DNA of 63,667 nucleotides, filler included, from Bacteroidales bacterium (GTDB lineage Bacteria > Bacteroidota > Bacteroidia > Bacteroidales > CAIWKO01), in assembly GCA_035389045.1 (NCBI GenBank). It is 7 parts of 5 records of this genome, joined end to end, with 100 filler letters (N's around TTAATTAATTAA, not from the genome) between each part and the next. Parts side by side here need not be neighbours in the genome. Positions count along the whole stretch, not along the records: positions 41,163 to 43,294 come from DAOORA010000004.1; positions 43,395 to 51,483 come from DAOORA010000005.1; 5 more parts are not named here. One strand, 5' to 3'. A program made the position numbers. This document shows, one piece after another, positions 42,001-48,000 of the stretch. Position 1 is the stretch's first letter. Each line of letters begins with the position of its first letter.

Positions 42001-45000
42001 ACATTAGCCGATAAAATAAGTGCGGTATTTGTTCCCGCAGTAGTAATATTATCCCTGTTGACTTTTGTCGTCAACTTTTTTGGTTTCGAAATCGGATTCA
42101 AATATTCCCTGCTCAGAAGTATCGCCGTGCTGGTAATCGCATGTCCCTGCGCCCTGGGTCTGGCTATCCCCACGGCAGTGGTGGTTGGAATAGGCAGGGT
42201 GGCACGGCAGGGAATTCTGATAAAAGGCGCCGGCACCATGCAAAAAATTACTTCCCTGAAAAACATTGCTTTTGATAAAACAGGAACACTCACTACCGGA
42301 AAATTTGTCATCAAAGAACTTAAAACCTTCGGGATCAGCATGCAGGAAGCCCGTTCACTGCTGTACTCTATGGAAAAGTATTCATCACATCCCATTTCAG
42401 TTTCTATCCTCAGTGAACTTGAGGGAGAAACAGCTATAAAACTGCTTGATATTGAAGAAATTAAAGGTAAGGGAATCATTGCCAAAGACAACAAAGAAAA
42501 TCGTTACATGGCTGGGTCTTTTCGTATGGCAGGCAATGTAACCCATGAAGATCAACATGACGTGTACCTGGTAAAAAATGACCAAATAATTGCCACTGTA
42601 GATCTTAAAGATGAAATCAGGCCGGAAGCAAAAGAAACCATAGCTTTTTTCAGATCAAAAGGTATCCGTACTCTTTTACTTAGCGGAGACAGGCAACAAA
42701 AATGCGATGAACTGGCCAGCTCACTCGGAATGGATGAAGTGTTTGCAGAAAAACTCCCGGCAGAAAAACTTACCCTTATTGAACGTTTAGACCAGTCCGG
42801 CGGTGTGATAATGGTGGGTGATGGAATCAATGATGCTCCTGCCCTTTCAAGGGCTACGGTGGGCGTTTCGCTGGGTAATGCAACCCAGATAGCCGTAAAA
42901 TCAGCACAGGTAGTGTTACTAAACGGAAAACTGAATTTGCTTCCACAGGCATACCTTATCAGTAAAAACACCATGACCGTCATAAAACAAAATCTTTTCT
43001 GGGCATTTATCTATAATGTCATCGCAATTCCTTTAGCTGCATCAGGATTATTAAATCCGATGATAGCTGCGGCATCCATGGCGCTGTCGGATGTATTTGT
43101 GGTCATGAACTCGTTAAGGTTAAGGACCAAAAAACTCAGGTAAAAAGAGGAGCAATATTTCCTCCTTTCTGCGCAAATCTGCGTTCCGCCGAGGCGGACT
43201 ACGGGAAATTCTTTCTCTTGCAGGCGCAAAGTTTTTTATACTTTTTTAGAAACTGTTTTGATTTTATGTTACATAAGATTTATGATGGATTTTTNNNNNN
43301 NNNNNNNNNNNNNNNNNNNNNNNNNNNNNNNNNNNNNNTTAATTAATTAANNNNNNNNNNNNNNNNNNNNNNNNNNNNNNNNNNNNNNNNNNNNATGAGG
43401 GTGTCTCAATAAGTAGTTTTATATCCTGTATCATAAAAAATGTTAAATAAAAAAACATTTGGAATGATATAAAAATTTTATAATATTTTTGTTCTGACCA
43501 TATTAACTATAAAAATTGAAAAACATGAAAAAACTTGTTGCAGAATTTATCGGTACCTTATGGCTGGTTCTTGGAGGATGCGGCAGCGCAGTGCTGGCAG
43601 CTGCTTACCCTGAACTCGGCATTGGTTTTGTTGGTGTTGCCATTGCTTTCGGGCTTACGGTACTCACCATGGTCTATGCTATCGGGCATATTTCGGGTTG
43701 TCATCTCAATCCGGCTGTTTCGCTGGGGTTATGGATTGCGGGACGTTTCGATAAAAAAGAATTGATACCATATATTGTAGCACAGGTGCTGGGTGGTATC
43801 ACGGGTGCAGCTATTCTGTATCTTATGGCCAGTGGTAAAGAAGGTTTTGAAACCGGAGGCTTTGCATCGAATGGTTACGGTGCATTATCTCCCGGCGGTT
43901 ACGATATGCTCTCGGCCATGATCACAGAAATAGTGATGACGTTTATGTTCCTGATCATCATCCTAGGCGCCACGCACCCCAAGGCGCCAAAAGGATTTGC
44001 AGGTATCGCCATTGGCTTGGGGCTTACTTTGATACATTTAATCAGTATTCCGGTCACCAATACATCGGTAAATCCGGCCCGCAGCACCAGCCAGGCTATC
44101 TTTGCAGGCGGCGACGCTATGGGGCAGTTGTGGCTTTTCTGGCTGGCGCCTCTTGTGGGAGCCATGCTGGCCGGCATAGTATACAAGCTCGTTTTTGCCG
44201 AAAAAGAATAATATTTCGTTGTAAGATTTTTTATAATGACCAACTCAATTTTATTTGGGTTGGTCATTATTTTTGTGCTAATTTTGCCAAAAAAACAGAT
44301 GTAATATGAATATTTCCGTACAAAAAATCAGAGAATTATCAGAAAAGTATCAGGATTATACAGCAGATAATCTTTCAGCGCTAATCAAAGCCAAGTCCCT
44401 CAGCGGACAGGAAAAAGCAGTGGCACAGGTATTAAGCGCTCAGATGAAACAGGCCGGTTTTGACGAAGTTAGTATCGATGGCCTCGGTAATGTTATCGGG
44501 CGTATCGGAAACGGGAAAAAGATCCTGGCTATTGACGGGCATATCGACACCGTTGACATCGGCAACATGGCCAACTGGTCGTTCGATCCGTTGAACGGCC
44601 TGATAAAAGAGGGCTTTGTTCACGGGCGAGGCACGGTTGACCAGAAAGGCGGCCCTGCAGCTTTTGTTACTGCTGGCAGGATATTAAAAGAACTGGGGCC
44701 CGGCAACGACATGACCCTTTACTGTGTCGGCAGTGTTATGGAAGAAGACTGTGACGGGCTCTGCTGGAAATATATCATCGAGGAAGACAAGATTGTTCCC
44801 GATGTAGTCATCAGTACCGAACCCACTAACCTGAAGATATACCGCGGACACCGCGGGCGCATGGAGATTGAAATAACTTTTAAAGGCGTATCATCCCATG
44901 GCTCTGCACCGGAACGGGGTAAAAATGCCATTTATATGGCATCGCGTGTTTGCCTGGAAATTGAAAAACTCAACGAACGTCTTGCCTTTGATGAATTTTT

Positions 45001-48000
45001 AGGTAAAGGAACGGTTGCTCTGTCAGAGTTTGTATCGGGAAGCCCTTCGTTGTGTGCGGTGGCTGATTATGCAAAGATCCATCTCGACCGCCGTTTGACA
45101 TGGGGAGAGACCAAAGAATCGGCCATGCAGGAAATCAGGGAGATTATCAAAGATATGGATGCTGTCGCCGAAATACTTTATTATGACGGAACGGCATATA
45201 CAGGCCTGAATTATGGCATGGAAAAATATTACCCGACCTGGAAAATTGAAGAAAGCCACAACGCAGTACAGACAGGTATTAACGCGTATCAGCAGCTTTA
45301 TGATCAAAAACCTGTCATCGACAAATGGACCTTCTCAACCAACGGAGTCACCATCAACGGGATGTACAAAATACCTGTGATCGGATTCGGTCCCGGTAAT
45401 GAGGTGCTTGCCCACGCACCCAACGAAAAAGTGGCGGTCAGCGACCTGGTCACAGCTTCGGCATTTTATGCAGCTTACGCATCATCATTTTAAAAATATA
45501 TAATATGGAAAAAATTCAGGATTTAATTAATGAAATAAAAAGATTTAAAACATCTTTATATGCTAAAGATTTTTTGCTGACATGGGATAAAACATCGGAT
45601 GAACTGAATGTGATACTGCTGGTTGCCGAGGTATTAAAAGCCATGAGAGATCAGAACATCTCCCCGCGCCTCTTTGACTCCGGGCTGGCAATCTCCAATT
45701 TTCGTGACAACTCCACCCGTACCCGCTTTTCTTTTGCTTCGGCATGTAACATGCTGGGAATGGCCGTGCAGGACCTTGACGAGACCAAGTCGCAGATTGC
45801 CCATGGCGAAACCGTCAGGGAAACTGCCAATATGATTTCCTTTCTTTCCGATGTCATCGGCATCCGCGACGACATGTTTCTAGGCAAGGGACATACCTAT
45901 ATGCTTGAGGTGGCCAAAGCCCTTGACGACGGTTTTAAGCACAAGGTACTCCCCTGCCGTCCGGCTATCGTCAACCTGCAATGCGATATAGACCATCCTA
46001 CCCAGTCCATGGCTGACCTGCTGCATCTGAAAAAGCATTTCGGATCGCTCGAAAACCTCAGAGGGAAAAAAATAGCGATGACCTGGGCCTATTCACCAAG
46101 CTACGGAAAACCCTTGTCGGTGCCACAAGGCATCATCGGTTTGATGTCAAGGTTTGGCATGCATGTAGAACTCGCACACCCTGAAGGTTATGACCTGATA
46201 CCTGAAGTGATGGACATAGCCTTTAAAAATGCCCTTGAAAGCGGCGGAAGTTTTAAAGTCGTGAAAAACATGGATACAGCTTTTAAAAATGCTGATATCG
46301 TTTACCCCAAAAGCTGGGCGCCCTATTCCGTGATGCAAAAACGTACAGAACTCCTCCTCAGCGGCGATGCTGAGGGACTGAAAACCCTGGAAAAACAATG
46401 TCTCGCCAACAATGCCAAACACAAAGACTGGGAATGTAATAAAGAAAACATGAAGCATACCAAAGAGGGCAAAGCGTTGTACATGCATTGTTTACCGGCC
46501 GATATTTCAGGGGTATCCTGTAAAGAAGGCGAAGTGGAAAAATCTGTTTTTGAAAAGTACCGCATTCCGACCTATATCGAAGCAGGATTTAAACCCTATA
46601 TCATTTCGGCTATGATACTGACCAGCCTGTTTAAAAACGTGCCTAAAACATTAGAAGACGTTTTTAATAAAAATGTTTTGCGCCGGCAGTTATAAGCATC
46701 ATCTGCCATAATTCCCTGCCAGCATTTAACTTGCGCATACTATATTCGGATTTTAATCAGATAGAAGTAATCGGTCAGCCTACAAACTGACCGATTCTTA
46801 TTTTGTCATTGAATTTCAATGTTTTTTAGGGTTTTGTCAAAGCAGAACAATGCGGTTGAACCGTATTATGATTTGTTTAATACCTGGTATGTATATTCGT
46901 TGTATATAAATGCTTTTTTATATTTAGGCGTTCAGGTACGTTAAAAATATTTTTTTATGTAAGTTTGCATTGAATTTCATATCTTTGCATTAATATTCAA
47001 ATACACATTCCATTAACCTTTAAAAAGTTTTTTTATGAGAAAAATGTTACTTTTTTTATTGCTTGTACTCCCTGTTATCAGCCTGAATGCGCAAATACCG
47101 GTGAGCACAACTCCTGAAAACAAAAATGTCATACTTGAAGAATTCACAGGTATACATTGCGGCTATTGTCCTCTGGGGCATAAAGTAGCAAGTACTATTA
47201 TGACATCCAATCCAAATAATGCTTACGTAATTGCCATTCACACGGGCAGTTATGCCACGCCCGATGCCGGGGAGCCAGATTACAGGACTTCATTCGGATC
47301 GGCTATTGCTTCACAATCGGATCTGACCGCTTACCCGGCAGGGACGGTAAACCGCCATGTTTTTTCGGGTATGGGACAATCATCAGGGGGAACAGCCATG
47401 TCGCGCACCAACTGGACTGCCGCTTCCACCACCATTCTGGGACAACCCTCCTATCTCAATGTTGGCGTGTCTGCCCAGGTAGATTATGTCACCAGGGTAC
47501 TTACCATTCACTGTCAGGTATATTACACCGGAAACAGCACGGTTACCACAAACAAATTAAATATTGCCATCCTGCAGAACAACATAAAAGGGCCACAATC
47601 GGGCTCAAGCGGCAATCCCACCATGGTCACTCCCGATGGTCAGTACCTGCACCAGCATATGCTCAGGCATATGTTGACCGGACAGTGGGGTGTTACCATA
47701 AAAAATACCAATACCGCATCGGGCACCCTGAAAGTAGACACCACCATCACGTACACTGTTCCCGCTGCTTACACCAGCGTGCCGGTTAATTTAGCCGAAC
47801 TTGAAATTATCGCCTTCGTATCCGAAGGCAACCAGGAAATTATTTCAGGAAGCGGATGCCTGATGAATCAGCCTGCCATTGACGCCTCTATAAGCTCTGT
47901 GTCGGGTTTACCATTATTGCATTGTTCCACAAATACTATTACGCCAACGGTGGTATTGAAAAACAAAGGTACGGATGTACTCACAAGTGCAATAATCAAT

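Follow-up and report, generated by a model that had tools for sequence, protein, structure and literature searches.

Reductive purine pathway genes in environmental Bacteroidales: a candidate selenium-independent variant around ygeY-ygeW

Reductive breakdown of urate through 2,8-dioxopurine has been described in C. sporogenes and E. coli (Liu et al., bioRxiv 10.1101/2025.04.24.650524; Li et al., PMC12507026). According to Liu et al., the pathway needs selenium-dependent molybdenum hydroxylases; the urate-reducing enzyme, DOPDH, bears the signature F1009V plus A1078T/S and was inactive when taken out of a C. sporogenes selD mutant, and its authors found no residue that explains the use of Se or S. 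Published work also reports YqeB and YqeC in all pathway-positive gut strains, and growth of C. difficile on urate requires yqeB. Here we describe the pathway genes of one Bacteroidales genome (G000) and their counterparts across the order, where the selenium-insertion genes are missing and two unstudied vitamin-B6 enzymes occur, so that the set looks like a selenium-independent version.

The ygeY-ygeW locus and the other pathway genes of G000

The window analysed is a 63,667-nt stretch made of joined contig pieces, in which the region with ygeY and ygeW corresponds to C5:90801-98889 of G000. Both ORFs lie at 44306-46695, where the initial annotation had placed them, and both exceed the curated cut-offs for their families (score/cut-off below).

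43516..44211, + strand: aquaporin Z (aqpZ), a neighbour outside the pathway; NF003838 393/256
44233..44270, + strand: terminator-like hairpin and T run between aqpZ and ygeY, 16-pair stem; a consensus match only
44306..45493, + strand: ygeY, M20-family ureido hydrolase, 395 aa, predicted product 2,3-diaminopropionate; NF009555 528/321, TIGR03526 504/321.5
45505..46695, + strand: ygeW, knotted catabolic carbamoyltransferase, 396 aa, predicted product carbamoyl phosphate; NF005538 703/453, TIGR03316 656/500
46769..46796, + strand: terminator-like hairpin 3' of ygeW

YgeY and YgeW are 52% and 69% identical to their E. coli namesakes, and their ORFs are 11 nt apart. The hairpin and T run between aqpZ and ygeY suggest that ygeY-ygeW form a transcription unit of their own; terminator-like sites numbered 8 against 3.9 expected, while a promoter scan gave no excess (7 sites, 7.9 expected). 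The aqpZ-ygeY adjacency was seen in none of six other genomes mapped. Two RNA runs labelled activated sludge, X1 and X2, contain contigs that cover ygeY and ygeW at 100% identity (X3 is patchy), but as contigs without a DNA control they are no proof of transcription; their ends at 46750 (X1) and 46749 (X2), near the hairpin at 46769..46796, are a weak hint. A FastTree of YgeW did not resolve the Bacteroidales as a single clade, and we propose neither a donor nor a sequence of events.

The remaining genes are scattered over four contigs:

C1: PALP486-dpaL-xdh; xdh TIGR03311 915/830
C20: ssnA-like and hydA; ssnA-like 330/455.5 and 379/444, both under cut-off; hydA 497/393
C46: ygfK and arcC (carbamate kinase); ygfK 930/835, arcC 390/358
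C72: xdhAB, xanthine dehydrogenase of the classical type; over the cut-offs of TIGR02965 and TIGR02963

These locations agree with the initial annotation. The orthologues of YgeW, YgeY, YgfK, HyuA and carbamate kinase all exceed curated cut-offs, as had been reported for ygeY, ygeW, ygfK, hydA, xdh and arcC; dpaL, listed with them, passes only two of three models (NF006058 and TIGR01747), falling under TIGR03528 (352/532). The MocA-like protein is below its cut-off, and MoaA-like, MoeA-like and MoaC genes are present. Neither G000 nor any of 362 retrieved loci gave a urate permease of the UacT/XanQ type. In the other carriers tested, hydA and arcC were each present in five of five. In G000 an ornithine carbamoyltransferase gene is found close to arcC, but we rejected a role of arcC as a mere component of arginine deiminase: no match to that enzyme came up in G000 or G055, although three of five genomes have one.

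With 31% identity to E. coli SsnA, the SsnA-like proteins make up a clade of their own, and the G000 copy is under both family cut-offs. At the same time, the equivalents of H62, H64, H227, H264 and D312 are invariant, the gene adjoins xdh and hydA in operons, and a quick tree with long branches groups the clade with E. coli SsnA against GuaD. The conserved His/Asp ligands and the operon position go some way towards answering the earlier worry over a score of 330 bits.

Distribution across Bacteroidales and two PLP enzymes

In a family-even sample of 201 Bacteroidales genomes, we called a genome a carrier if it had at least three of ygeW, ssnA-like, DOPDH-type xdh and ygfK. This gave 53 carriers, and 146 genomes had none of the four. 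Occurrence in carriers against the other 148 genomes was 52 and 1 for ssnA-like, 52 and 1 for ygfK, 50 and 0 for xdh, 47 and 0 for ygeW, 50 and 2 for PALP486, and 49 and 2 for a threonine-synthase-like (ThrC-like) enzyme; because four of these genes define the carriers and the genomes are related, the counts are not independent tests. The earlier estimate of ygeW in about a fifth of genomes was reproduced (47/201 over cut-off), as was its company with the ssnA-like clade (46 of 47, E<1e-100).

Some genomes, single-contig ones included, carry the pathway genes as a single operon. The order ygfK-PALP486-ThrC-like-xdh-ssnA-hydA occurs in G072, G055, G191, G167, G032 and G103, often adjoining mocA, xdhCAB or ygeY-ygeW; comparable clusters were found in G103, G072, G167, G068 and L087, and several genomes have classical xdhCAB and a gene for a TadA-like deaminase next to the cluster. 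At some loci the xdh slot is taken by another Mo enzyme, of 1069 aa, and the cluster of G011 is a variant that includes an OTC-like carbamoyltransferase. The hosts are free-living sludge and sediment organisms; Lentimicrobiaceae are among the bearers of the xdh.

What stands of the reductive urate pathway first proposed for G000 is the orthologues and the fact that roughly one genome in four of the sample has them together, rather than the words "complete", "Se-dependent" and "absent from Bacteroidetes". A complete canonical set is exceptional, dpaL being present in only 4 of the 53 carriers. As for the reported absence, the literature covers urate consumption by human gut isolates and six Bacteroides strains, with no genome survey among it; the 2025 survey of 52,515 MAGs has a phylum figure and tables, and its supplement may already include Bacteroidota (Liu et al., bioRxiv 10.1101/2025.04.24.650524).

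In 49 of the 53 carriers the DpaL slot is filled by the ThrC-like PLP enzyme: 48 have it alone, three have DpaL alone, one has both and one neither. Among 80 metagenome loci the corresponding numbers were 47, 11, 0 and 22. The ThrC-like protein (416 aa) has the ThrC fold and PLP motifs, with threonine synthases as best PDB matches, but is only 24% identical to DpaL. It carries invariant RN and GDG motifs, an N-terminal CxxC..CxxC, and NPxT/V where B. subtilis-type ThrC has NPYR. The arginine of NPYR, which we take to bind phosphate, is absent from all motif variants listed for 34 ThrC-like sequences. Two of four copies (G103 and G055) passed TIGR00260, and in three of four other genomes tested (G103, G072, G055) the ThrC-like gene is the sole thrC match, while G167 has a second, separate thrC that scores higher. 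We consider it quite likely that the ThrC-like enzyme is the normal lyase of diaminopropionate (DAP) in these organisms, and that DpaL displaces it, in the same slot, in the lineage of G000.

PALP486, a 486-aa enzyme of cysteine-synthase fold, was modelled with a pLDDT of 87.6. The model matched OAS-TL C (Z 30.6), Fn1220 (30.4), CBS (29.4), SbnA (28.9) and CmnB (28.4) ahead of DpaL (21.7). K107, STGN, QF and GIG are invariant, as are C140 and C274; N- and C-terminal extensions are present, and sequence identity is at most about 27%. No NCBIfam cut-off was passed, including those for CysK/CysM (TIGR01139 112/351, TIGR01136 110/344). At least 8,000 relatives in several phyla match at E<=1e-100. 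The likeliest role of PALP486, an enzyme of OASS/CBS fold, though with chances a little short of even, is beta-elimination or beta-replacement on a C3 intermediate with a free alpha-amino group (albizziin or DAP); beta-replacement with sulfide would yield cysteine.

Selenium machinery and the molybdenum enzyme

The xdh product of C1 is an 852-aa fused FeS+Moco enzyme without a FAD subunit. It retains the equivalents of E802, R880 and E1261, with V in place of F1009 and T in place of A1078; in the C72 paralogue the two positions are still F and A. The comparison is with the published residues and not directly with the C. sporogenes protein. In other molybdenum hydroxylases a sulfur ligand is loaded via XdhC and a cysteine desulfurase.

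The initial annotation had called this enzyme Se-dependent, which turns out to be the name of its family only. YqeB (TIGR03309) and YqeC (TIGR03172) were each found in none of the 53 carriers by profile search and tblastn, which detected both in the positive controls (E. coli and MAG G397), and YqeB was found in none of seven further ygeW-positive Bacteroidota. SelD was not found in 22 of the 50 xdh-bearing carriers (23 of all 53), among them G072, which is a single contig, and G031 and G167, which are both 100% complete. Its presence in 30 of 53 carriers against 56 of 148 others is a mild enrichment. Where tested (five SelD-positive carriers), SelD was accompanied by Sec in G000, where it lies within a selA-selB cluster, and by SelU in the other four. 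A hidden, divergent SelD was sought among six AIRS-domain proteins of five SelD-negative genomes, which proved to be five ThiL and one PurM-like protein, the remaining long two-domain matches being taken as PurL by size alone. We know of no labile-selenium route without SelD. The idea of PALP486 as a stand-in for YqeB/YqeC is weakened by G397, which has the cluster with PALP486 plus a yqeB-xdhC-mocA-yqeC operon; PALP486 does not simply replace YqeB.

Between the xdh of selD-positive genomes (19 sequences) and that of selD-negative ones (11 sequences) there is no discriminating residue, so that sulfur use is read from gene absence alone; the position of E. coli XdhD E606 falls in an alignment gap region and is uninformative. 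We think it likely that the Mo ligand of this enzyme is sulfur and that XdhC, together with a cysteine desulfurase, loads it.

Proposed route, alternatives and known systems

Our moderately confident reading is that environmental Bacteroidales have a sulfur-liganded, selenium-independent variant of the reductive purine pathway with which they ferment purines in sludge and sediments, ygeY-ygeW providing its two ureido-cleaving steps. With every step assigned by orthology, purine bases from nucleic-acid turnover would be oxidised to urate by the classical XdhAB, and urate reduced to 2,8-dioxopurine by the 852-aa enzyme; YgfK would dearomatise the product, and the SsnA-like enzyme and HydA would open the rings. 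YgeW would then release carbamoyl phosphate, from which ArcC could make ATP, and YgeY would yield DAP, to be split into pyruvate and ammonia by the PLP lyase. More tentatively, and with somewhat less than an even chance, free-living anaerobic Bacteroidota may combine a sulfido-Mo DOPDH without SelD/YqeBC, a ThrC paralogue as new DAP ammonia-lyase and a PALP486 family that uses DAP or albizziin as aminoacrylate donor, so that purine breakdown feeds cysteine/sulfur supply.

The same pathway could still depend on selenium, loaded without YqeB, YqeC and SelD, for instance by XdhC and a NifS-like protein that draw on selenide or selenocysteine, perhaps with help from PALP486. That xdh exceeds the TIGR03311 cut-off, that its active-site motifs resemble those of the enzyme of YqeB-positive G397, that G008 encodes a NifS-SelD fusion close to ygeY-ygeW, and that PALP486 adjoins xdhC in G011, G039, G252 and G393 would all fit; we nevertheless regard it as unlikely given the SelD-negative carriers, with G072, G031 and G167 among them, and given that SelD, where tested, is accounted for by Sec or SelU. 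Slightly less probable again is that the ThrC-like enzyme is an ordinary threonine synthase riding with the operon, which would leave most carriers either with no DAP lyase or with PALP486 in that role: its PDB matches, the TIGR00260 passes and its standing as sole thrC match point that way, but its occurrence tracks the purine genes, it and DpaL nearly exclude each other in one slot, the NPYR arginine is absent, and G167 has its separate, better-scoring thrC.

The substrate might also be another heterocycle, or the C3 end or branch point might differ, the two PLP enzymes setting the end point and urate not being the substrate. The divergent SsnA-like clade, the search for a urate permease that found none in G000 and the 362 loci, the 1069-aa Mo enzyme and the G011 variant are compatible with this; the closeness of YgeW to the E. 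coli protein, the DOPDH signature residues, the neighbouring xdhCAB and TadA-like deaminase, and DpaL in the slot in the lineage of G000 speak against it and make it improbable. That binning contamination or incomplete MAGs produced both the gene presence and the selenium-gene absence is very improbable: G000 is in 135 contigs with its genes scattered, and carriers are mostly MAGs, but the same synteny recurs on independent contigs L229-L235, the set is seen in single-contig G072 and G103, YqeB/YqeC are missing in all carriers, most of them at least 90% complete, and contamination of G000 is 1.65%.

If the more tentative reading, with its sulfido-Mo DOPDH and both PLP enzymes, is true, free-living anaerobic Bacteroidota would be overlooked recyclers of purine nitrogen in sediments and digesters, and the S and Se forms of the enzyme would make a natural pair for locating the ligand determinant. 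A clade of this enzyme family that is widespread among genomes with neither yqeB nor yqeC, and often with no selD, makes the Se-versus-S question directly testable; a candidate selenium-independent urate reductase would be useful for engineered urate-lowering strains. The two unstudied PLP families gain specific, testable functions, and surveys scoring PF00291 as "YgeX" would lump both with DpaL.

Among known systems, PALP486 shares fold and motifs with the fold type II PLP beta-replacement enzymes (OASS, CBS, SbnA, CmnB) and differs in its low identity, its extensions, C140/C274 and its tie to purine clusters. The ThrC-like enzyme shares fold and PLP motifs with threonine synthase of the B. 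subtilis/T. thermophilus type, apart from NPxT/V for NPYR and its own RN/GDG and cysteine motifs, and occupies the slot of the distant DpaL. The selenium-cofactor trait of Se-dependent molybdenum hydroxylases (SelD+YqeB+YqeC; Haft & Self, PMC2276186; Johnstone & Self, PMC11448449) has in common a Mo subunit over TIGR03311 and a gene neighbourhood of ygeW, ygeY, ygfK and mocA-like, but YqeB/YqeC were found in no carrier and SelD is missing in 23 of 53. Compared with the C. sporogenes/E. coli pathway (Liu et al., bioRxiv 10.1101/2025.04.24.650524; Li et al., PMC12507026), the Bacteroidales lack YqeB/YqeC and often SelD, no UacT/PbuX-type permease was found, DpaL is rare with the ThrC-like enzyme in its stead, PALP486 is extra, and the SsnA clade is divergent. 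Shared are a DOPDH-type enzyme in which FeS and Moco parts are fused, which has no FAD subunit and which shows F1009V/A1078T, together with YgfK, HyuA, YgeW, YgeY, carbamate kinase and a candidate SsnA counterpart, and a separate xanthine dehydrogenase supplying urate, which in the Bacteroidales is of the classical R. capsulatus type, in hosts from sludge and sediment.

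Pathway genes and their genomic setting

We searched the studied genome (Bacteroidales bacterium GCA_035389045.1, G000; 96.3% complete, 1.65% contamination) with E. coli K-12 proteins as queries and with NCBIfam models. The window is a patchwork of pieces from contigs C1, C2, C4, C5 and C97 and therefore holds merely two pathway genes, ygeY and ygeW, with terminator-like hairpins on both sides of the pair. This pair, placed by the initial annotation at 44306..46695, is real, both reading frames scoring over curated cut-offs, and the genes assigned to other contigs (xdh and dpaL on C1, hydA and ssnA-like on C20, ygfK and arcC on C46, xdh on C72) were all located.

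Pathway and cofactor genes of the studied genome (score/curated family cut-off)
Window 44306-45493: ygeY, over the YgeY cut-off; 52% identity to the E. coli protein
Window 45505-46695: ygeW, over the YgeW cut-off; 69% identity to the E. coli protein
C1: PALP486-dpaL-xdh; xdh TIGR03311 915/830
C20: ssnA-like, 330/455.5, under cut-off
C20: hydA, 497/393
C46: ygfK, 930/835
C46: mocA-like gene, 97/186, under cut-off
C46: arcC, 390/358
C72: classical xdhAB with xdhC
C19: moeA-like, moaA-like and moaC

The statement that dpaL passes curated cut-offs holds for NF006058 and TIGR01747 but not for TIGR03528. Immediately upstream of ssnA-hydA (L006:3198-8754, G000:C20) lie genes for a PPDK-like fusion (1365 aa) and a GAPDH-like protein (417 aa), both conserved in loci L085 and L086; in L295 and L297 the GAPDH-like gene stands 3' of ssnA.

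UacT/XanQ homologues were found neither in this genome nor in the 362 loci searched. The genome has one GhxQ/AzgA-like permease (C30) and encodes a TadA-like deaminase, orthologues of which are close to pathway genes at four loci; we infer that purine bases, rather than imported urate, are the substrate.

Other features of the window
26597-40594: low-GC block (~0.33-0.36), with a 1149-aa reading frame
31365-32891: presumably an FtsZ/tubulin-like reading frame, in the low-GC block
37669-40156: a pair we take to be MotA/MotB- or ZorA/ZorB-like, in the same block
1409-18138, 47035-48969, 52009-54024: several large, presumably secreted proteins with T9SS-type C-terminal ends
13726-18138: one of these secreted proteins, which we take to be C25 peptidase-like
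24685-25683 (minus strand): presumably a tungstate/molybdate ABC binding protein, which could serve the Mo enzymes

Distribution and published record

The sample comprised 201 Bacteroidales genomes at least 80% complete, drawn evenly over 143 families and including the studied genome. YgeW was over cut-off in 47, bearing out an earlier estimate of about a fifth, and ssnA-like matches at E<1e-100 occurred in 53 (excluding G136 and G074, with 29-33% matches). An xdh orthologue at no less than 57% was present in 50 (4 of them fragments; 28-35% paralogues excluded), and 53 genomes had ygfK at E<1e-120, with scores above the cut-off in 47. Genomes with three or more of the four genes (hereafter carriers) numbered 53; 2 had one and 146 had none. 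The carrier share applies to a family-even draw, not to species. When genomes were drawn across the whole phylum, 8 of 201 had ygeW.

The commonest gene order is ygfK-PALP486-ThrC-like-xdh-ssnA-hydA, frequently neighboured by mocA, xdhCAB, an Lrp regulator or ygeY-ygeW; almost the whole set lies within one stretch in G103 and L087, while the studied genome is the scattered case. Shorter YgfK-like proteins (665-677 aa) stand between xdh and ssnA in L344 and L349 (G307, G260). Other clusters (L197 in G011:C94; L332-L341) contain an OTC-like carbamoyltransferase of ~330-350 aa, under the YgeW cut-off and adjoining ygeY, ThrC-like and mocA, and are possibly a further pathway variant. The 23 named records comprise 21 Bacteroidales/Bacteroidetes MAGs, one Ignavibacteria and one 'bacterium'; we interpret their isolate names as pointing to digesters, lakes, groundwater, soda-lake sediment and the deep subsurface. 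The window sequence itself was found in runs labelled activated sludge.

The pathway had been described as reported absent from Bacteroidetes. The wording 'notably absent in Bacteroidetes' is indeed published but, in the accessible text of the Liu 2022 preprint, is about whether human gut isolates consume urate. The accessible text of Liu 2025 (10.1101/2025.04.24.650524) describes a survey of 52,515 MAGs requiring 4/7 genes, and its tables may include Bacteroidota because four sufficed. As far as the available parts of these sources go, the SsnA network of Li 2025 (PMC12507026) names six phyla, Bacteroidota not among them, and Table S9 of PMC12542679 has no Bacteroidota among its gut genomes. 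We found no literature linking ygeW with Bacteroidota, nor a description of the variant in the searchable literature, which does not extend to paywalled articles such as the journal version of Liu 2025. Mere presence of the pathway in Bacteroidota may already stand in a published supplement; the absence of selenium genes and the two PLP enzymes turned up in none of the searchable papers. The feature is real and very probably works like the 2,8-dioxopurine pathway; the membership test by selenium-cofactor genes came out negative, and DpaL is usually absent.

Two PLP-dependent enzymes

PALP486, a 486-aa enzyme of the cysteine-synthase fold, occurs in 50 of the 53 carriers and 2 of the 148 other genomes (56-74% identity), with relatives in clusters of Spirochaetota, Chloroflexota, Pseudomonadota and Bacillota. 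It lies between ygeW and ygeY in G307, G385, G260 and G349, precedes ygeY-arcC-ygeW in L101, and stands beside xdhC in G011, G039, G252 and G393. Its structure model groups with OASS, CBS, SbnA and CmnB (Z 28-31) and not with DpaL (Z 21.7). Because PALP486 is found together with DpaL, with the ThrC-like protein and, in G397, with YqeBC, our tentative preference is that it acts on a C3 intermediate whose alpha-amino group is free; of two other roles, supplying sulfur to Moco seems unlikely and racemisation quite improbable.

The canonical gene set called complete does include dpaL in the studied genome, but DpaL is over cut-off in only 6 of the 201 genomes, including 4 carriers. A 416-aa threonine-synthase-like (ThrC-like) protein is found in 49 of 53 carriers versus 2 of 148 others (excluding G147, 32%). 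Among carriers, 48 have ThrC-like only, 3 DpaL only, 1 both and 1 neither. The corresponding counts for 80 PALP486 loci from metagenomes are 47, 11, 0 and 22, and many of the 22 with neither are truncated. In relatives of the studied genome dpaL occupies the exact slot of ThrC-like elsewhere, and the arginine of the ThrC motif NPYR is missing from the ThrC-like family, which has invariant motifs of its own. Against the ThrC-like protein as terminal lyase count that it is the sole thrC match in G103, G072 and G055, although a separate thrC is present in G167 and absent from the studied genome, and that dpaL lies away from pathway genes in G150 and G104.

Selenium genes and the molybdenum enzyme

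In the accessible text of Liu et al. 2025 (10.1101/2025.04.24.650524), all cluster-bearing strains have YqeBC and SelD, and DOPDH, which converts urate to 2,8-dioxopurine, is inactive in a selD mutant; growth of C. difficile on urate requires yqeB (Johnstone & Self, PMC11448449, as far as available). The description of xdh as 'Se-dependent' was not sustained: neither YqeB nor YqeC had a match at E<=0.001 in the studied genome or in 53 further genomes (all other carriers and G073), and SelD was not found in 22 of 50 xdh-bearing carriers, including single-contig G072, 5-contig G197 and the 100%-complete G031 and G167. YqeB was detected in 1 of 12 further genomes tested, G397, which shows that the search works on a MAG. 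From the missing genes in carriers we infer that the Mo enzyme uses sulfur. Against a selenium-free reading count the mild enrichment of SelD in carriers (30/53 versus 56/148), a NifS-SelD fusion near ygeY-ygeW in G008, and the lack of any residue setting apart 19 selD-positive from 11 selD-negative Mo enzymes. In all five SelD-positive carriers tested, another trait accounts for SelD; it is accompanied by selA, selB and tRNA-Sec in the studied genome and by SelU in four other carriers. The G008 fusion (NifS/IscS-SelD, ~735 aa, L196:10393-12600) is apparently common in Bacteroidales, and G000:C4:31000-37600 (L319) carries complete selenocysteine machinery: selA, selB, a cysteine desulfurase-like gene, yedF, selD and tRNA-Sec.

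In the SsnA-like clade, all Bacteroidales rows keep the E. coli SsnA residues H62, H64, H227, H264 and D312, which we take to be metal ligands. Another Mo hydroxylase occupies the xdh slot in L241:13157-16366, L242, L245, L249, L260, L091 and L358 (1069 aa, Moco and FAD parts fused, FeS subunit separate, GGSFGGKD motif), with split forms in G385 and G349. The low-GC contig C27 (0.344), met in the MoaA search, has at least seven radical SAM matches at 28000-49000.

Aligned to bovine XOR and to its C72 paralogue, the C1 enzyme retains the equivalents of Q767, E802, R880 and E1261. The F1009 position is V (I in some copies) and A1078 is T in 30/30 sequences, the two changes that the accessible text of Liu et al. 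2025 (10.1101/2025.04.24.650524) gives for DOPDH; the Moco domain given there, residues 307-839, is consistent with the 852-aa length of the C1 enzyme. This likeness rests on published residues and domain span. The C72 enzyme retains F and A at the two positions, which suggests that the genome has both a urate-reducing and a urate-forming enzyme, as does C. sporogenes.
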